From positions 13,873 through 77,872 of the forward strand of contig DASZZL010000159.1 in NCBI GenBank assembly GCA_035545035.1: DNA of 64,000 nucleotides, written 5' to 3'. The DNA is from Pyrinomonadaceae bacterium. GTDB lineage: Bacteria > Acidobacteriota > Blastocatellia > Pyrinomonadales > Pyrinomonadaceae. A model generated the notes under the pieces. The model saw only the letters and a list, made by a program, of their open reading frames with translations. It was not told the origin of the DNA and did not search any database. Positions 21,135 to 27,959 of this stretch are shown piece after piece. The number at the start of each line of letters is the position of its first letter. Position 1 is the first letter of the stretch. The position numbers and the translations under genes are program-made.

Positions 21135-22151
21135 ATGAAACGCAAGCCCCCCGTTCGCTTTGCCATCCCATTTATTTTCTTGCTGACTGTTTCGGCGCTG
21201 ACTTTTTCCGCGCACGCGAGAGCGACTCAGGCTGGACCCACGCTGCTCAAGCGCACGGTCACCGTCAGCGCGAAGCGCTTCCTGCGTTACTGGCCCAACC
21301 CGAGCGCGGCTGAGCCGCGATACAACACGTGGTCGTGGACTCCGCAAGTCAGCTTCCAGATTCTTGGCCCGGTGCCGGGCGGCAGTCAGTGGATGTTCGA
21401 AGCGAGCACGCCGGACGGCAAGCCGTGGGTCAGTTTCAAACTGCCGACGGCGGAAGTTGGCGACGATGAGTTGGTCACCGTCAAAGGGCCGGACCTGGAC
21501 GAAAATGAACTTGAGAAAAAAGCGATCACGCAGACCGGCCTGTTCCCTTTCAAGATCACTCTGAAGAACGCGCTCGCCGGCACGAATACCGCTCTGTTCG
21601 AAGGCAAGTTCAAGGTCGCAACCTACGCGCCCGATCAGGCCATTCCTGAATACAAAGGAAAGCGGGAGTTCTATGTCGTGCAGGACTGGCGACTGCCAAT
21701 CGGTTTTATTTGGTACGACCCCAGGATGGACGAGAACGTTCCGGTGATTAGCGTACAGATGTGGTTCCGCGGCACACGTAGCGGCGAGAAGATGGAAGGC
21801 GTCCTGTTCTACAAAGGGCAGCAGATTGGCACAGCTCTGGGATATAACGAAGACCAGATTTCGACCGGCGTAGGCGACCCCCAGGGACGTTGGGGCGTCT
21901 GGAAATTTCAGTTTGCGAAAGTGCGCGGATACAACAACGACACCGCGAGCGCGAACAGCTACGCGAGTCTGTTCTTTCTCGACAAGAACCCGGGCGACTA
22001 CGAGGTCAAAGTTTTGCGCGATGGCGATCTGGCGCGCTCGGCGAAGTTCACGGTCGGCGCTGACGGCCGTCTGGTGGACAACGGCATCGCGCAGAAAAAC
22101 ACCCTCGGGGGTTGCGATGGTCCTGCCGGTGAACGTTATCGGCGCGGGTGA
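21135..22151 (+). CDS. Secreted hypothetical protein; the 3' end probably continues to 22221 through a 1-nt frameshift at a G5 run
   Basis: AGAGGGG RBS, ATG 21135, signal MKRKPPVRFAIPFIFLLTVSALTFSAHARA. See finding at 22100-22221. Confidence 0.6.
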   Translation: MKRKPPVRFAIPFIFLLTVSALTFSAHARATQAGPTLLKRTVTVSAKRFLRYWPNPSAAEPRYNTWSWTPQVSFQILGPVPGGSQWMFEASTPDGKPWVSFKLPTAEVGDDELVTVKGPDLDENELEKKAITQTGLFPFKITLKNALAGTNTALFEGKFKVATYAPDQAIPEYKGKREFYVVQDWRLPIGFIWYDPRMDENVPVISVQMWFRGTRSGEKMEGVLFYKGQQIGTALGYNEDQISTGVGDPQGRWGVWKFQFAKVRGYNNDTASANSYASLFFLDKNPGDYEVKVLRDGDLARSAKFTVGADGRLVDNGIAQKNTLGGCDGPAGERYRRG

Positions 22152-22284
22152 TGGCCAGTGGGCCGCGAATGCGTGGAAGACTGATGCGTTTTACGGCAAT
22201 CCTTTGAGCGGTTTCGCCTAGCTGAAACTCATTTCGTCAGCGCATAGACGTTCGCAATGTCCGTGAAGTAGACCTGTATACGGC

Positions 22285-23373
22285 TTAATAGTGGTGAGCG
22301 GACAAGCGTTGTAATTGTCCGGTTCGGAGAGCGACGCTTGAAACCGGGTTTTCGTCGAGCAAATGTCCGGAGATAAACGCCGCATACTCTCGCCAGGCAA
22401 CTTCGTCTCGGCAACGACAGCGAGCAATCAAGCCGGAGAGCGCACGAAGGTGCGACGTTCTCTGCTCAAACTGCCGGAGAGAAAAAAGATTTCCCCCCTC
22501 ATCGTCTCTGATCGCCGCGGCGTACAAAGCTTCAGATATCCCGCAAGCCAACCCCTGTGAGGACAAAGTATCCCGGGCCAGCGCGGCGTCTCCAATTCTC
22601 GTGCCTGCATCGCCAATGGTCCACTGAACAGAGGCAGGCGAGATTCCTCCCTGAGTCATCTCGGCAACGCGAGGAAGCCCTTCGAGAATCCACGCCGCCC
22701 CATATTCATGTAAAAGGTGATCAAGCTCGTGAGGATTCCCTGCGACTGTCTTTCCCCGACCAACAATACCCAGGACAATGTAGTCGGCCGCCCCAAGCCG
22801 GAAGACAAAGCCTCCGGGCAGCGCGCAAATTCTGAACTCCTGGCTGCCAGAACAAGATCGCCTCGAAGTGAAGAGAGTCCGGGCCGCCCAGGGTCTGGCC
22901 GGCTGGATCTTCTTCTTCGCCGACAGAGATCTGCGGCCGGTGGCATCAATTAACCGTACCTTGTGATTTCTCGCGGCCGCAAGTGCCTTACTGAACGTTT
23001 CGGATTGCTGGCCCAGAATAATATTCACGCGCTTCGAAGCCACCAGTGCTGAAAGCAGGGCGAGATCGAGCGCCGGCCGCTCGACATGAGCGGAGACCGG
23101 GCCAACGCTTTCGGTGAAGCCTTCTTTTTCCCACGAGATCAAACGCGTCTCGTGCAACCGGTCGACACCGATCTGTTTGGGATGAATTCCGTATTCGACC
23201 AGCAGAGCCAGCAATGATGCAGGCACAGCTTCGACCCGAGGAGCTAGCTCAGCGGATGGCAGGCAACTTGTAATCAGCGCGGTCCGGTAATGCTTCGACA
23301 GTTCGAGCGCGGCCACCATCCCCACCGGCCCCGAACCGAGCACGACGACCTGGAAATCTCGGATACCTGTCAT
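22285..23373 (-). CDS. FAD-dependent oxidoreductase of the halogenase/LodB-like flavoprotein class
   Basis: Rossmann motif VVVLGSGPVGMVAALEL and GDAALARDTLSSQGLACGI (GD..D..SSQG motif). The ATG overlaps the upstream stop (ATGA at 23370-23373). Confidence 0.75.
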   Translation of the reverse strand: MTGIRDFQVVVLGSGPVGMVAALELSKHYRTALITSCLPSAELAPRVEAVPASLLALLVEYGIHPKQIGVDRLHETRLISWEKEGFTESVGPVSAHVERPALDLALLSALVASKRVNIILGQQSETFSKALAAARNHKVRLIDATGRRSLSAKKKIQPARPWAARTLFTSRRSCSGSQEFRICALPGGFVFRLGAADYIVLGIVGRGKTVAGNPHELDHLLHEYGAAWILEGLPRVAEMTQGGISPASVQWTIGDAGTRIGDAALARDTLSSQGLACGISEALYAAAIRDDEGGNLFSLRQFEQRTSHLRALSGLIARCRCRDEVAWREYAAFISGHLLDENPVSSVALRTGQLQRLSAHHY

Positions 23374-25094
23374 GGATGGTCGATTGGTGCGAAGCGCGGG
23401 TCAGCGATCCGATCAAAAGCAACCAGAAAACCCGCGTCAGCAACGGCCCCGGCAGCGCCTGCAATCCCCGCATTCCCGAGCATCGCATTTCGTGCCGTGT
23501 TGATGTCTCCCGCGCCTGCGGGAATTCCCAGGGTATAGCCGCTAAACAGCCGTTCAAGTAGATCCCGGTATCTCTGTTGCAGCGTAGCGTGCCGAGCATT
23601 GCCCGATGGTGGTGTCGTTAGATTGGAACCCCGGAGATAGTCGTTCGGGCTGTGCCGGTTAAGCCATTCCTGTATGAAGCTGAAGGTTTCGAAATGGTTC
23701 TCTCCCTCAGCCATGATCGACCGGATTGTTTGTCTCATCTCCGCCGACCCGTCGCGTTCCAGGGTTGCCAGAATGCGTGAGTAAAGTCCGTCAACCAAAA
23801 CGGAAGGACGCTCGAGGTCTATAAAATCCTGAATTGCTTGTGGTGTTGCGGCGCGCGGTTCGACGTTGCGGAAGCCGCCGGGCCCTGCCGCGGGAACTCG
23901 CACCGCCACGCGCAGTGCCGGAGTGAACTTCCCAACGGTCAAAGCATGCAGGACGTCGTTCACGGCGCGCAGGTGGCGCATCTCACTCGCGGCAATCCTT
24001 ATCAACTCGGCGCGGGCAGCCACTACATCATCATTGGCGGCGGGCGGAATCCGGGTTGCTTTCAAAGAATATGCCGCGGCCAGATACTCGTGAATGACTG
24101 CCAGTTCGACTCCCGCTGCATATCGCAGGTTCGTCAGCAGCTCTTCCTTGGTTGCAAACTTATCGGCGGCGAAAACTCCCGGCTGGTAAGGGCCAACGAT
24201 CTCTCGTCCTTCAACAACGAAATTCAGCGCCTGCCACTCCGTATTGATCTGATAATAGACAAGCTCAGCAAGCTCCGGATTACCTGCGCCATTGGGATCA
24301 TTAGAAGTTGCCGGAGGTGGCAAAGTGCTCAGGTTACGGTTGGCGCGTTCCCACACGACATCGGTATTAACCTCAGGAACGTTAGGCGCCGGTGTTGGCA
24401 AGGGCGGCAGCGCAATATCGGGGTGGTTTGACGCCCAATAAAAACATCCGCAGTCACGGAAGTCGTGCGTCCAGGGACTGCACAACGACTGGGTCAACTC
24501 GCCGGGCAGAAACATCTTAGCCAGACCGCCGTTATCATCCAGATAGCGCGCCCGGTTCCCGACCAGGGTCCGGGACATATTTCCCCGCTTAAGCGTGAGT
24601 TGAACTTCGGTGCCCTCGGTCAGCAATCGAATCGCAGTCCAGGCGTCGGGGGGCAAACGATTCGGGCCGGTGCTTGGCAACGCGAGATTAGCGACGACCA
24701 GAGTCTGCACGCCGAGCGGCCCAAACGTGCCGCGAATCTGTGTGACGCGCCAACTTCGGCTCGCCGCCAGGTCGCCGGCAATCTGTTGATAGACGGTCGC
24801 AGTGCCCGCCGGCATCTGTCCACCGCTGACCGCGCTCTGGAGGCCGGGTGTATCCACGGAAACAACTCTGATCGTGGTGTCGCCTTCAATATCAACTTCA
24901 AGGAAAGGAAAGAATCGCCGCTCGAGGTTTCGCAGATCGCACTCGAGTCCCGGAAAACAGTTTCCGACTCCGGCTTCAAGACGTGTCGAAACTGGATTGC
25001 CGGCAACGAGCCGGGTCCCGTTCTGTGGACCCTGCCCGCGGCGCAACGCCGCGACGTTCCGCGGAATGAGTTTGATTGGTTCCTGCTGACTCAT
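23370..25094 (-). CDS. Fusion protein: N-terminal half with LodA/GoxA-like Cys/Trp motif, C-terminal ferritin-like (PF12902-type) four-helix domain
   Basis: AAAGGAGGA RBS and ATG 25094 (MSQQEPIKLIP..). CSPWTHDFRDCGCFYWASNHPD at 24435-24482 region. Ferritin-like ligand motifs VELAVIHEYLAAAYSL and AASEMRHLRAVNDVLHAL. Confidence 0.65.
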   Translation of the reverse strand: MSQQEPIKLIPRNVAALRRGQGPQNGTRLVAGNPVSTRLEAGVGNCFPGLECDLRNLERRFFPFLEVDIEGDTTIRVVSVDTPGLQSAVSGGQMPAGTATVYQQIAGDLAASRSWRVTQIRGTFGPLGVQTLVVANLALPSTGPNRLPPDAWTAIRLLTEGTEVQLTLKRGNMSRTLVGNRARYLDDNGGLAKMFLPGELTQSLCSPWTHDFRDCGCFYWASNHPDIALPPLPTPAPNVPEVNTDVVWERANRNLSTLPPPATSNDPNGAGNPELAELVYYQINTEWQALNFVVEGREIVGPYQPGVFAADKFATKEELLTNLRYAAGVELAVIHEYLAAAYSLKATRIPPAANDDVVAARAELIRIAASEMRHLRAVNDVLHALTVGKFTPALRVAVRVPAAGPGGFRNVEPRAATPQAIQDFIDLERPSVLVDGLYSRILATLERDGSAEMRQTIRSIMAEGENHFETFSFIQEWLNRHSPNDYLRGSNLTTPPSGNARHATLQQRYRDLLERLFSGYTLGIPAGAGDINTARNAMLGNAGIAGAAGAVADAGFLVAFDRIADPRFAPIDHP

Positions 25095-25981
25095 TACTCT
25101 TCCTCCTTTGATTGAACTGCTCCGGGCTTGAAGAATTCTGGATTTCCTTCCACCAGCTCGCAGTAAGAAGCCAGACAGAATTCCAACCAGCCGCGGATGA
25201 ATCCACAGGCTGACTCGGTTCTGCTCGACGCTTCCTGGTGGCAGCCGCCCGAACACAAATATCTGGCCCAGCACTGGCGGCATGCCGCCTGTGCGTGAAC
25301 GTGTCTGGCTGAAAGAAACTCTTGCTGCCGCGTCCGCTCGATTCCCTCATTATCGCCGAGGTAATAGGCGGCAGAGCCAATGGCGCGGTGGCAGGCATAC
25401 CAATCTCCATTGGCGGCAACGGAAAAATATCCGCCACCCGCCCCGCACGGATAGGGAGAGCTTGCGCCGCGGTAAAGCTGCTTGAGCCCAACGGCTAAGT
25501 TGGTAAGACGAATTGATTCACCGTGACGCGCACGTTCAAGCTCCGGCTCTGCCGTCTCGGTAAGCGCGGCGAGATATTTGGGCCAGTCCTCGTCCTTGAG
25601 CGCTCCAGCGTTCTCTCCGGCTGCCCGTAATGGAGCGAACCCAACCTCCGGAAAACCCATTGAGAGAATCGCCTCGAACCGTTTCCGCAGATTGAGGTCA
25701 AAGCGCGTGACTGTGGCACGAGCGGCGATGAAGGCCGACCCGGGATTGGATAAGAGTGACTTTGTGGCATCGCGCAAGAGTGCGTATGAGCCGTGTTGAT
25801 TAACCGGCAGCGGCCTTTGCAGATTCTGTATCCGCGCTCCACCGTCCACACTCACCGTCACAGCAAAGCGATGTCTTCTGAAAAGTTCGATATCTTCCTC
25901 ACGCAGGAGCGTTCCGTTTGTAGTTACTGAAAATCGCACGTCCAGCCCGCGCTTGTCTCCTTCGGCAGCCGCGAATTGCAC
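25094..25981 (-). pseudogene. Radical-SAM/SPASM maturase lacking the N-terminal CX3CX2C core (5'-truncated or stand-alone SPASM half)
   Basis: Begins at TNGTLL. Intact SPASM Cys pattern (YPCGAGGGYFSVAANGDWYACH, CRQCWARYLCSGGCH..ACGF..C). In-frame stop 5 codons upstream of GTG 25981. No CX3CX2C in any minus frame up to 26460. Its TAA overlaps ATG 25094. Confidence 0.65.
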
Positions 25982-26292
25982 TGACTGATGTGGAACTTAT
26001 TCGGTTTCGATTTACTCCGGCACGCGGTCACTCTTATGGTCCGCCGCAAGCGGCGCAGCCGCACCCGTCAATGACGGGAACATTCGCGCCCGTTGAGGCC
26101 AGCCGGGCTTTCTTGAATCAAAACACCGCCTGGGTCACGTTCCGCGGCAACATTCCGTACGATCCACCGCAGGACACCTATGATGGGGCGGACATCGGTG
26201 ACGATACGTCGCTTGGCGTGGTAGATGACACTTGCGGAGCACGCGTAGAAATAAGTCTGCGACTACCGGCGCCGGTGAACAAGTGGGTAGAG

Positions 26293-26415
26293 TCACCCAA
26301 TCCGCGCAGCCGCGGAGAAACTGCGATTGTAGGCGTCCTGAGGTTTGGTGCTGCCTCCGAGCCGCGCGATCGCGATCGCTGGAGTAACAAAAATCGTCTG
26401 AATGACCTCCGCCAT
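26293..26415 (-). CDS. 40-codon ORF whose N-terminus matches the canonical LodA-family start (PAIAIARLGGS)
   Basis: AAGGAG sits 9 nt upstream of ATG 26415. MAEVIQTIFVTPAIAIARLGGSTKPQDAYNRSFSAAARIG, then stop. Too short for the ORF track. Confidence 0.35.
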   Translation of the reverse strand: MAEVIQTIFVTPAIAIARLGGSTKPQDAYNRSFSAAARIG

Positions 26416-26777
26416 TTTTGAGAACTCCTTTTTGTGACTATAGGGACGGGCTTGCTTCATTCGACTGGCAAAGCGCCGGTCAGGGGCGTTACCTTCAACT
26501 AATCACTGTCACCGCCGCTTCTTGCGACAAGTGGGGGCCATAGAACCACAAAGATCCTGTGCATGGACCAAGGCTGGATTAGCGAGTATGCAAGACCGGG
26601 CAGGCTCGTGAGAATTCAGCCTTCGCAAATGAATAGCGGGCGCACAATATTCTCTTTCCCGCAAAAAATCAATTGCTTTTTGGGGCCTTGATGGATCGAC
26701 AAGATTGTCCCCCCATGTATTGTCCCCCATGTAAACGAACAGCGGCTTTGCTGGCCGCTGTAAGTTGCTGATTACTA

Positions 26778-26854
26778 TGGTAGCGGGGGGCAGGATCGAA
26801 CTGCCGACCTTGGGGTTATGAATCCCACGCTCTAACCATCTGAGCTACCCCGCC
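26778..26854 (-). tRNA. tRNA-Met (anticodon CAT; could be a lysidine-modified tRNA-Ile2), CCA encoded
   Basis: Reverse complement reads GGCGGGGTAGCTCAGATGGTTAGAGCGTGGGATTCATAACCCCAAGGTCGGCAGTTCGATCCTGCCCCCCGCTACCA. Cloverleaf arms fold by hand. Position 1-72 is paired, so it is not an initiator. Confidence 0.85.
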
Positions 26855-26892: not shown

Positions 26893-27162
26893 AGCGCAAA
26901 GGAAAAGAGCTAAGGGGTAAAGGGGTAAGGGGGAAGCAGTGAGCAGGAGGTAGGAGGCCGCCTTCGATTTCGGATTGCGAACCTGAAAAGCAAAGGGCAA
27001 AGGAAGGGGGTAAGGGCAAAGGGGTAAGGGAAGATTTCAGATTCGAGATTTTAGGTTTGAGATTTCAGATTCCAGACTTGAGATTTAAGATTCGAGATTT
27101 GAGATTCAGCATTCGAGATTGAAGTCTTGAAATCTGAAACTTGAAACTTGAAACTTGAAACC
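26893..27162. repeat. Low-complexity 'word' repeat tract (AAGGGGTAA units, then GAGATTT/CAGATTC/GAAACTT units)
   Basis: AAGGGGTAAAGGGGTAAGGGGG..GGGGGTAAGGGCAAAGGGGTAAGGG, followed by about 130 nt of 7-8 nt units ending TGAAACTTGAAACTTGAAACTTGAAACC. Confidence 0.8.
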
Positions 27163-27164
27163 AA

Positions 27165-27959
27165 TCACCCGGTCCGGCCGCTTTCGAGCGCTTTCAAAAG
27201 CTGATCGACCAACTCGACTTCTTCATCGCCGGGCTCGAGTTCCTTGTACTTATGCAGGGCCTTCGTGGCGGCGGCGACATCCGTCAGCCGGTGATAAACC
27301 AGGGCGAGATTGTAATAAACCAGCGAGAAGTTCGGCTCGATTTGCGCCGCCGCTTCGTAATGCAAACGCGCGAGCGGAAAGTCGCCCGCGTCGTAGTAGA
27401 GGTTGCCGAGGTTGTAGTGCGCTTCGACGTGCCGGGGATCGTGTTTCAAAGACTGCGTGAAGTTGTCGAGCGCGCCAATCGAATTGCCCCTATCCAGATC
27501 GATGATTCCCAGATTGCAGTATGCTTCCGCGACGTTGTCGCCCTCGCCAATAGCTTCAGCGTAAAACTCGGCGGCCTTTACGTCACCTCGCTCATGCAGC
27601 ATGAGAGCTTCTTCGAAAGGCGTCAGCAAGCGCGCGATTTGTCCGCCGGCGGGCCGAAACAAACTTAACTGGCCCTGAAGCTCGGCCTCGATCTGCTTGA
27701 TCGTCAAACCCTGCGAGCGCATTTCGCGCACGCGTCGAAAGAGCGTGAGCGCCTGGAAATCGTAAGTGAAGTCTACGCCGTCGGCAGCCGGCGTGCCCTG
27801 AATGATTCCGGCTTCAGTCCAGCGACGAACGGTGCGTTCGCTCAGACCAAACAGTTGTTTGATCTCGCGAACCGAATAGCTGGATTTGACACGTTGGTAA
27901 TCCGCCTTTGGGGGAACGGAGGACGGGAACGAGAGAATCTTCCGACTCTTTTCAGTCAT
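27165..27959 (-). CDS. MerR-type HTH transcriptional regulator with C-terminal TPR repeats
   Basis: YSVREIKQLFGLSERTVRRWTEAGII, then TPR-like AEAYCNLGIIDL, VEAHYNLGNLYY, SLVYYNLALVYH. Confidence 0.8.
   Translation of the reverse strand: MTEKSRKILSFPSSVPPKADYQRVKSSYSVREIKQLFGLSERTVRRWTEAGIIQGTPAADGVDFTYDFQALTLFRRVREMRSQGLTIKQIEAELQGQLSLFRPAGGQIARLLTPFEEALMLHERGDVKAAEFYAEAIGEGDNVAEAYCNLGIIDLDRGNSIGALDNFTQSLKHDPRHVEAHYNLGNLYYDAGDFPLARLHYEAAAQIEPNFSLVYYNLALVYHRLTDVAAATKALHKYKELEPGDEEVELVDQLLKALESGRTG

Follow-up and report, generated by a model that had tools for sequence, protein, structure and literature searches.

To our knowledge, only two cysteine tryptophylquinone (CTQ) systems are known, LodA/GoxA and quinohaemoprotein amine dehydrogenase (QHNDH). 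LodA/GoxA proteins are matured by one flavoprotein, and QHNDH by a radical S-adenosylmethionine (radical-SAM) enzyme and a flavoprotein acting on the small subunit. LodA and GoxA are CTQ-dependent amino-acid oxidases of Marinomonas mediterranea and Pseudoalteromonas luteoviolacea (PDB 2YMW, 3WEU, 6BYW), with LodB and GoxB as maturases. In QhpC of QHNDH, CTQ is formed from Cys37 and Trp43, the thioethers Cys27-Asp33 and Cys41-Asp49 are made by radical SAM, and Trp43 is hydroxylated by QhpG within the Cys41-Asp49 ring (PMC8172795, PMC7876137). The present analysis concerns a 64-kb stretch of DNA from a Pyrinomonadaceae bacterium (contig DASZZL010000159.1; the whole stretch is called the window), in which a 574-aa protein with a Cys/Trp motif and a ferritin-like domain (gene A) is encoded next to a flavoprotein (gene B). 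Genes A and B stand, intact, at the end of a four-gene system, X - radical-SAM - A - B, whose first two genes are wrecked in the window. This widespread and undescribed system probably makes a cysteine-tryptophan quinone enzyme. The best explanation of the cassette, to which a probability of about 0.6 was given, is a quinoprotein on a LodA scaffold, in which the CTQ would be caged by two Cys-Asp thioethers and to which a ferritin-like di-metal domain is fused.

An earlier note on the window, made from its letters, had described the 574-aa open reading frame (ORF) with its Cys/Trp motif, two E..H helices and an ATGA overlap with the flavoprotein; all of these were confirmed, on the minus strand. 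A is preceded by an AAGGAGG Shine-Dalgarno sequence, 7 nt from its start, and begins at the same residue as its homologues. A longer version of 637 aa, starting from 25283, has no support among the homologues. The stop of A and the start of B overlap in CCATGACAGG, that is, ATGA. In 30 homologues with identity down to 57%, residues C205, W208, H210, D211, F212, R213, D214, C215, C217, Y219, W220, N223, H224, P225 and D226 of the predicted cofactor loop are invariant. The loop core was seen again in about 200 distinct sequences of the family, and D211, C215 and W220 are invariant in every one examined, so the Cys/Trp conservation among homologues on which the earlier note depended is borne out; judged from these alignments, conservation of the motif is far beyond chance.

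The residues D211, C215 and W220 of A align with D512, C516 and W581 of LodA in the PDB alignments, with the same Asp-Cys spacing. The compared stretches of LodA (497-517 and 579-586) read EPGDLTKRMACPWQAD512FFNC516 ... YWW581PPQSP, and that of PlGoxA reads PWQSD678AASC682 ... WW697. C215 and W220 are the predicted precursors of CTQ, and D211 would be the conserved active-site Asp. Unlike LodA/GoxA, A has two extra invariant cysteines flanking the CTQ cysteine; they are missing from 10 of 10 canonical LodA/GoxA proteins, and a radical-SAM gene is near none of those loci. By inspection, the loop has the spacing of the QhpC pattern C27-x5-D33-x3-C37...C41..W43-x5-D49, for which residues 25-52 of Pseudomonas putida QhpC (SLC27QPMEAD33LYGC37SDPC41WW43PAQVPD49) were used in the alignment. 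Four spacings are identical in the two: C-x5-D; D-x3-C; W-x5-D, preceded by Pro; and a further Cys located between the Cys and the Trp of CTQ. Thioethers C205-D211 and C217-D226 are predicted from this analogy.

The comparison of profiles gave the relation of the motif region to known families. The motifs PGELT, PW..D...C, YW...P, W248ER and W287Q.LNFV, five in all, occur in the same order in A and in LodA/GoxA (hhalign). The full A profile gave E 9.4e-4 against the LodA/GoxA profile and the motif sub-profile gave E 1.1e-4 with a probability of 56%. The LodA/GoxA profile consisted of ten proteins assembled from plasmids and found by tblastn with a 54-aa GoxA fragment, which had given no candidates in a protein search. 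A of the window matched the Pfam family LodA_C precisely at the motif, with 15 bits (E 0.02; cutoff 25); all 30 family members matched it at the same place, all sub-threshold with a best E of 0.0011. When 42-aa motif segments of four proteins were compared with 24,736 Pfam families, LodA_C was matched with E values from 7.7e-4, for the window's own segment, to 5.6e-7, and the segment of one family member exceeded the cutoff at 29.8 bits. QH-AmDH_gamma (PF08992) was matched by two of the four segments (E 0.0034 and 0.037), and the only other match was the weak and unrelated Ig_NUP210_1st (E 0.14, window's own segment). In the PDB, LodA alone was matched by the motif profile; the full A profile matched bacterioferritin alone (E 0.27), and a single-sequence 74-aa motif segment of A gave no match. 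The likeness to LodA/GoxA that the earlier note drew from motifs holds as remote homology of the motif region, by the sub-profile and the sole PDB match, and for A of the window falls short of the curated LodA_C cutoff. The invariant N-terminal segment of A (residues 30-67) is possibly equivalent to the C.GG.FHPGIELTW...PF segment of LodA; its FPGLE part is collinear with LodA 416-437 (FHPGIE), is not significant alone (E 0.3) and is kept as a suggestion.

These residues can also be read as a Cys/His-rich metal or iron-sulfur site, with A as a ferritin-like oxygenase or oxidase whose likeness to LodA is structural heritage only, and with B acting on a small molecule. A metal could be bound by the invariant residues C205, C215, C217, H210 and H224, A of the window stays below the cutoff of every CTQ family, and PF12902, the family of its ferritin-like domain, is also found in VioB-type enzymes, to which the match was weak (E 0.0019). 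This reading is nevertheless considered very improbable, as A keeps the exact Asp, Cys and Trp of the LodA triad, with the same Asp-Cys spacing, the motif matches two CTQ families among all those in Pfam besides the weak unrelated one, and B is homologous to CTQ maturases over its full length, with its linkage to A kept in two different gene arrangements.

The remaining part of the LodA-like protein was found in gene X. It is well supported by the sequence comparisons that X (about 555 aa) and the first 300 or so residues of A are one LodA/GoxA-like protein split in two, with the N-terminal 60% or so in X. Foldseek of the AlphaFold model of X (mean confidence, pLDDT, 72) retrieved six LodA chains with a probability of 1.00 (E 3e-5 to 3e-4), all else having a probability of 0.12 or lower. 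In hhalign, X matched the LodA/GoxA profile with 95.9% probability (E 6e-9), the alignment extending over 227 columns (X 13-347, LodA 1-259). Pfam gave no family for X, with one sequence or with 30, and the GoxA model NF038173 was matched at E 0.002-0.03, below its score cutoff of 750. Natural X-A fusions of 1110-1201 aa were found in metagenomic proteins (P0291, P0304, P0307 and P0334). An alignment of these fusions together with 13 concatenated X and A pairs from the same contigs matched the LodA family with 96.9% probability (E 1.6e-10) over LodA positions 8-656 of 658. The LodA-type core, taken as shortened in the earlier note, is thus split instead.

Like LodA/GoxA, X plus residues 1-300 of A is collinear with the whole protein, the fold of X matches LodA and the Asp/Cys/Trp triad is kept. 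Unlike LodA/GoxA, which is a single polypeptide of about 600-1000 aa, X and A are separate genes in most genomes and fused in a minority of lineages, and about 130 residues (64-197) are inserted in A. The AlphaFold model of A alone has residues 1-53 and 197-306 at pLDDT below 50. These are its most conserved parts, and the low confidence fits segments that fold only against X. On the contig of fusion P0307, the fusion gene is followed by the radical-SAM gene; the opposite strand carries a Trp-halogenase-like flavoprotein gene and one for a berberine-bridge-enzyme-type flavin adenine dinucleotide (FAD) oxidase.

The intact cassette was examined in a metagenomic contig (L002) and in Paraburkholderia nodosa (L001), where the order is X (554-556 aa), radical-SAM (451-455 aa), A and B; the order was the same in all five contigs inspected. 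A scan of one genome per species gave at least 200 carriers of A, and 80 loci were kept for neighbourhood counts. X was upstream of A in 69 of the 69 loci with room for it, the radical-SAM gene adjoined A in 74 of 77, nearly always between A and X, and a B-type or LodB-type flavoprotein was present in 66 of 80. In the main clade the flavoprotein gene lies downstream of A; a clade of 33-38% identity has it upstream, in divergent orientation. The linkage of A and B is kept across phyla, and the pairing of the fusion protein with a flavoprotein, for which the earlier note had proposed a survey, is therefore conserved in other genomes. More than 1229 A homologues at 90% clustering were obtained, nearly all of 560-580 aa and named only "ferritin-like", and more than 952 X homologues lie on the same contigs as A homologues. 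Against 1.84 billion representatives, residues 1-310 of A gave 476 clusters at 50% identity. The carriers come from phyla of soil and fresh water. Nitrospirota, Acidobacteriota, Rokubacteria, Alpha-, Beta- and Gammaproteobacteria, Actinomycetota, Cyanobacteria and Myxococcota are among the groups represented, and cultured carriers belong to Bradyrhizobium (such as B. jicamae), Paraburkholderia (such as P. nodosa CNPSo 1341) and Undibacterium. No literature or curated model was found for the A family.

The assignment of A as a ferritin-like fusion, of B as a LodB/GoxB/QhpG-type flavin monooxygenase and of the radical-SAM protein as a QhpD/PapB/CteB-type SPASM maturase is well supported by profile matches. 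For an intact radical-SAM homologue, the best NCBIfam model was QhpD (TIGR03906, E 6.7e-79), followed by PapB and SCIFF maturases, and the best PDB match was CteB (5WGG, E 1.8e-43). The nearest families are thus those of QHNDH maturation, QhpD being the best family of the radical-SAM protein and QhpG both the best family and the best PDB match of B, with both family scores below the curated cutoffs. Unlike QHNDH, the cassette has no small gamma subunit (about 80 aa plus leader), the motif lying inside the 574-aa A; it is without QhpA, QhpB, QhpE and QhpF, no QhpA di-haem, QhpB beta-propeller, QhpE protease or QhpF exporter family being found among the neighbours in five contexts; the scaffold is LodA-like, and no signal peptide was found in X or A. 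A precursor peptide of the kind used in ribosomally synthesised and post-translationally modified peptides was considered as radical-SAM substrate and rejected, as X and the radical-SAM gene are 28 nt apart and the cassette contains no conserved small ORF.

The part played by the radical-SAM enzyme may be different from the one proposed here. The CTQ could be made in the LodA/GoxA manner from C215 and W220 with B, the radical-SAM enzyme making no QhpC-like Cys-Asp thioethers in A. Its target could then be X, a different residue or some separate substrate, or it could carry out another reaction, for instance an oxidation of the anaerobic sulfatase-maturating (anSME) type. The QhpD cutoff is not reached by the radical-SAM protein, which has likenesses to PapB, SCIFF and sulfatase maturases as well, a few loci are without the gene, and the similarity to QhpC is at the level of the pattern only. 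Its best matches (QhpD, PapB, CteB) are all thioether formers, however, the two extra invariant cysteines and D226 stand exactly at the cross-link positions of QhpC and are absent from LodA proteins without a radical-SAM gene, and the stop of the radical-SAM gene overlaps the start of A in TAATG, so that the two genes are translationally coupled. This other part for the radical-SAM enzyme is regarded as unlikely.

The flavoprotein B carries VLGSGPVGMVAA and IGDAALARDTLSSQGLA, which are FAD-binding GxGxxG and GD motifs. As in LodA/GoxA loci, a homologous flavoprotein gene is adjacent to the quinoprotein gene. The B-family profile matched the LodB/GoxB profile over 324 columns at full length (hhalign, probability 99.1%, E 9e-19). 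Among NCBIfam models QhpG was the best (E 3.7e-21, 75.5 bits), followed by GoxB (3e-6) and LodB (1e-5), all below the curated cutoffs. A six-sequence profile of B had QhpG (7CTQ, E 3.9e-5) as its top PDB match; with B as a single sequence, QhpG was not matched. By these scores B is closer to QhpG than to LodB. The LodB-like flavoprotein of the earlier note is thus placed correctly in the LodB/GoxB/QhpG clade, at a position nearer to QhpG than to LodB. Since the curated equivalog cutoffs were not reached, B would be a new subfamily rather than an orthologue of LodB, GoxB or QhpG. It is 90% identical to its relative in L002, with dN/dS 0.27 and no internal stops.

The C-terminal half of A had been assigned in the earlier note to the ferritin-like PF12902 fold, and this was upheld. 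Pfam matched PF12902 on residues 323-444 with 38.4 bits against a cutoff of 22.3 (E 1.6e-9), and 30 of 30 family members matched. The helices VELAVIHEYL and AASEMRHL are at residues 329-338 and 368-375, pLDDT is mostly above 80 in this domain, and Foldseek of the A model gave 3HL1, a PF12902 ferritin-like protein, at the top (E 1.7e-4), followed by bacterioferritins. Among the candidate metal ligands, E330 and E371-x-x-H374 do not vary in the homologues compared, and in the alignment they correspond to the E/ExxH ligands of bacterioferritin.

PF12902 was also observed as a stand-alone gene directly upstream of canonical LodA/GoxA genes, namely of an unsplit one on plasmid p3 of Azospirillum brasilense (L012 1487-5907), where a LodB-type gene follows downstream, and of another on a plasmid of Hymenobacter cellulosilyticus (L008 1404-4394). 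PF12902 genes beside lodA-lodB also occur in Agaricomycete fungi (PMC4417212, Fig. 1C). The link of this domain to LodA-type enzymes is recurrent, therefore. The loci of Azospirillum, Hymenobacter and the Agaricomycetes are like the present one in that a LodA-type protein, a PF12902 domain and a LodB-type flavoprotein are linked. In Azospirillum and Hymenobacter, unlike here, PF12902 is a separate gene with strong matches (E 7e-42 and 1e-28), whereas the domain of A is divergent (E 1.6e-9) and fused; their LodA proteins are unsplit and without the extra cysteines, and no radical-SAM gene is nearby.

The mechanism proposed for the best explanation, drawn by analogy with QHNDH and LodA, would have five steps. 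X and A would assemble first. The radical-SAM enzyme would then form the C205-D211 and C217-D226 sulfur-to-beta-carbon thioethers, as in Cys27-Asp33 and Cys41-Asp49 of QhpC. In the third step B would hydroxylate W220, enclosed by the C217-D226 ring, in the manner of QhpG acting on Trp43, and in the fourth C215 would add to the indole to give cysteine tryptophylquinone, D211 being the conserved active-site Asp. The mature enzyme would finally oxidise a primary amine or an amino acid in the cytoplasm, this location following from the lack of signal peptides in X and A. Least certain in this mechanism is the role of the ferritin-like di-metal domain: the favoured one is that of a redox partner taking electrons from the reduced CTQ, or of O2/H2O2 handling, and alternatively it may be the oxygenase for the first Trp hydroxylation.

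Several results weigh against this explanation. No curated model accepts the family proteins, none reaching the cutoffs of LodA_N (PF17990), LodA_C (PF18417), LodA, GoxA, QhpG or QhpD; B scores 75.5 bits for QhpG against a cutoff of 240, and the intact radical-SAM protein 266 bits for QhpD against 453. A alone reaches only 22-56% probability against the LodA profile. The window's own 42-aa motif segment gave no match to PF08992 and QhpC was not retrieved from the PDB by the motif profile, which, with PF08992 matched by two of four segments, makes the QhpC parallel an argument at the level of pattern. The second half of the di-metal site in A is non-canonical, with E463-G464-E465-x-H467 in place of a second ExxH and G464 where a Glu is needed. 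Three loci of uncultured Alphaproteobacteria (L029, L034 and L038) keep the Cys pattern without an intact radical-SAM gene and without B within 6 kb. In these loci X is followed almost directly by A, and the radical-SAM gene of L038 is a 29-aa remnant; L027 and L043, which also keep the Cys pattern, are without B alone.

Oxidative enzymes recur beside the cassette, among them dye-decolourising (DyP) peroxidase, animal-type haem peroxidase and multicopper oxidase, as peroxidase or multicopper-oxidase neighbours do at some lodA loci (PMC4417212). DyP peroxidase also adjoins canonical lodA in Mycetohabitans. The genes observed, those beside the cassette and that of Mycetohabitans together, are at L001 1745-3256, L015 4250-5896, L016 7697-9787 and L009 1-691. 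These neighbours hint at H2O2 or oxidative chemistry. In Paraburkholderia fungorum (L079 370-3002), X has two LodB-type genes on its upstream side. One of these matches canonical LodB very strongly (E 1e-116), and the split system may accordingly border on a canonical lodAB operon in that genome.

The state of the cassette in the window was established with L002, which is 94% identical, and Paraburkholderia nodosa L001 as references. The X - radical-SAM - A - B unit as a whole is oriented on the minus strand. This orientation, the truncated radical-SAM gene (25094-25990) and the remnants of the fourth gene (25988-26415) had escaped the earlier note, as had the QhpD-like maturase as part of the system and the QhpC-like thioether/CTQ pattern. 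Codons 46-204 and 301-556 of X and codons 1-153 of the radical-SAM gene are absent from the window (blastn and tblastn against intact L002), and a short ORF upstream of the radical-SAM remnant begins MAEVIQTIFVTPAIAIARLGG. X survives as three scrambled fragments, with other parts deleted, and the catalytic N-terminus of the radical-SAM gene is gone, so that the copy in the window probably either does not function or was misassembled. A could be neither completed nor matured from these genes, except if the genome has intact copies at another place or the assembly is in error. The coordinates are summarized in the table.

Table. Features of the cassette in the window and their correspondence to the intact contig L002
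Feature	Window position	Strand	Description
Gene B	22285-23373	minus	362-aa FAD-dependent monooxygenase, LodB/GoxB/QhpG clade (peptidyl-tryptophan hydroxylase type)
Gene A	23370-25094	minus	574 aa, begins MSQQEP
Gene A, architecture			residues ~30-300, C-terminal third of putative split LodA-like quinoprotein; residues ~307-574, PF12902 ferritin-like domain
Ferritin-like (PF12902) helical-bundle domain of A	23373..24176	minus	residues ~307-574; from Pfam, AlphaFold and Foldseek
Candidate metal ligands of A			E330, E371-x-x-H374, E428/D435, E465, H467
LodA/GoxA C-terminal-domain-like region of A	24204..24536	minus	residues 187-297; PGELT, PW..D...C, YW...P, W248ER, W287Q.LNFV
Predicted cofactor loop of A	24417..24515	minus	residues 194-226; MFLPGELTQSLCSPWTHDFRDCGCFYWASNHPD; MFLPGELTQSLC205SPWTHD211FRDC215GC217FYW220ASNHPD226
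N-terminal invariant segment of A	24894..25007	minus	residues 30-67; GNPVSTRLE.GVGNCFPGLECDLRNLERRFFPF, contains invariant C46
Truncated radical-SAM/SPASM gene	25094..25990	minus	residues 154-451 of 451-aa QhpD-like maturase (298 residues); CxxxCxxC motif gone
Inverted gene X remnant, codons ~205-300	25988..26281	plus	includes SLGVVDDTC motif common to LodA/GoxA
Inverted gene X remnant, codons ~29-45	26279..26329	plus	L002 499-549 on opposite strand, 96% identity (blastn)
Gene X remnant, codons 1-29	26329..26415	minus, original orientation	MAEVIQTIFVTPAIAIARLGGSTKPQDAY, LodA-like N-terminal 'P.IGIARVGNS' motif; runs into inverted sequence
L002 1-502	26855-26327		same orientation
L002 499-549	26279-26329		inverted
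L002 1027-1314	25988-26281		inverted
L002 2572-6265	25990-22297		same orientation

The scrambling of X and the radical-SAM gene may itself be an assembly artefact, or intact copies may lie outside the 64-kb window, and the system would then be complete and active in the source organism. The remnants look like selected coding sequence, with dN/dS of 0.11 for the radical-SAM fragment, 0.27 for that of X, 0.24 for A and 0.27 for B and no internal stops, and the junctions overlap by only 3-4 bases, no repeats being found at them which explain the inversions. No sign of relaxed selection on the remnants was seen in these ratios (0.11-0.27), and the absence of decay implies that the breakage is recent or an assembly error. 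Two separate inverted pieces, non-collinear and accompanied by two deletions, are nevertheless untypical of an assembler error; immediately downstream of B there is another deletion when the window is compared with L002, and no second copy of X or of the radical-SAM gene was found within the window. An intact system in the source organism is accordingly thought possible and somewhat doubtful.

Other features were noted around the broken half. The 143-aa plus-strand ORF at 25990-26421 is an artefact of the inversion, made of X codons ~205-300 and ~30-45 and then the reverse complement of the start region of X. In the second rearrangement (window 22150-22300 against L002 6266-8960), the DUF5050-like gene downstream of B is gone and two paralogous genes of about 365 aa seem collapsed to one, the breakpoint replacing the last 10 or so codons of B. 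A tRNA-Met (CAT) gene at 26778-26854 on the minus strand, just upstream of the X remnant, is the sole RNA family found in the window. Between it and a MerR/TPR-type ORF (27165-27959), a tandem array at 27032-27161 is made of about 11 copies of 7-nt AGATTTG-like units, also readable with periods of 14 or 21 nt, followed by CTTGAAA five times.

A related observation on the CTQ loop was made in a short LodA-like protein of Hymenobacter (L008 2910-4394, residues 416-445), whose loop matched QH-AmDH_gamma at E 0.005 and QhpC in the PDB (1jmx_G 25-52) at E 0.12. The comparison of sequences suggests a related CTQ loop common to the C-terminal domain of LodA and the gamma subunit of QHNDH. A bolder proposal, offered tentatively and with more doubt than belief, is that the cassette represents a third architectural class of CTQ proteins: a cytoplasmic two-piece LodA scaffold with a QhpC-type thioether-caged CTQ, wired to a built-in ferritin-like di-iron centre as electron acceptor or O2-handling site, and an evolutionary link in which the gamma subunit of QHNDH and the C-terminal domain of LodA would descend from a common CTQ-loop ancestor.

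The copy in the window is damaged, and the intact relatives are better suited for experiments. The A family joins the LodA/GoxA scaffold with the maturation logic and loop pattern of QHNDH, and could explain how both systems are related. It offers a testable model of a radical-SAM enzyme which modifies a large protein instead of a peptide, and it ties the uncharacterised PF12902 domain to tryptophylquinone enzymes. The pairing of a quinone with a di-iron cofactor, if true, would be one not described before.

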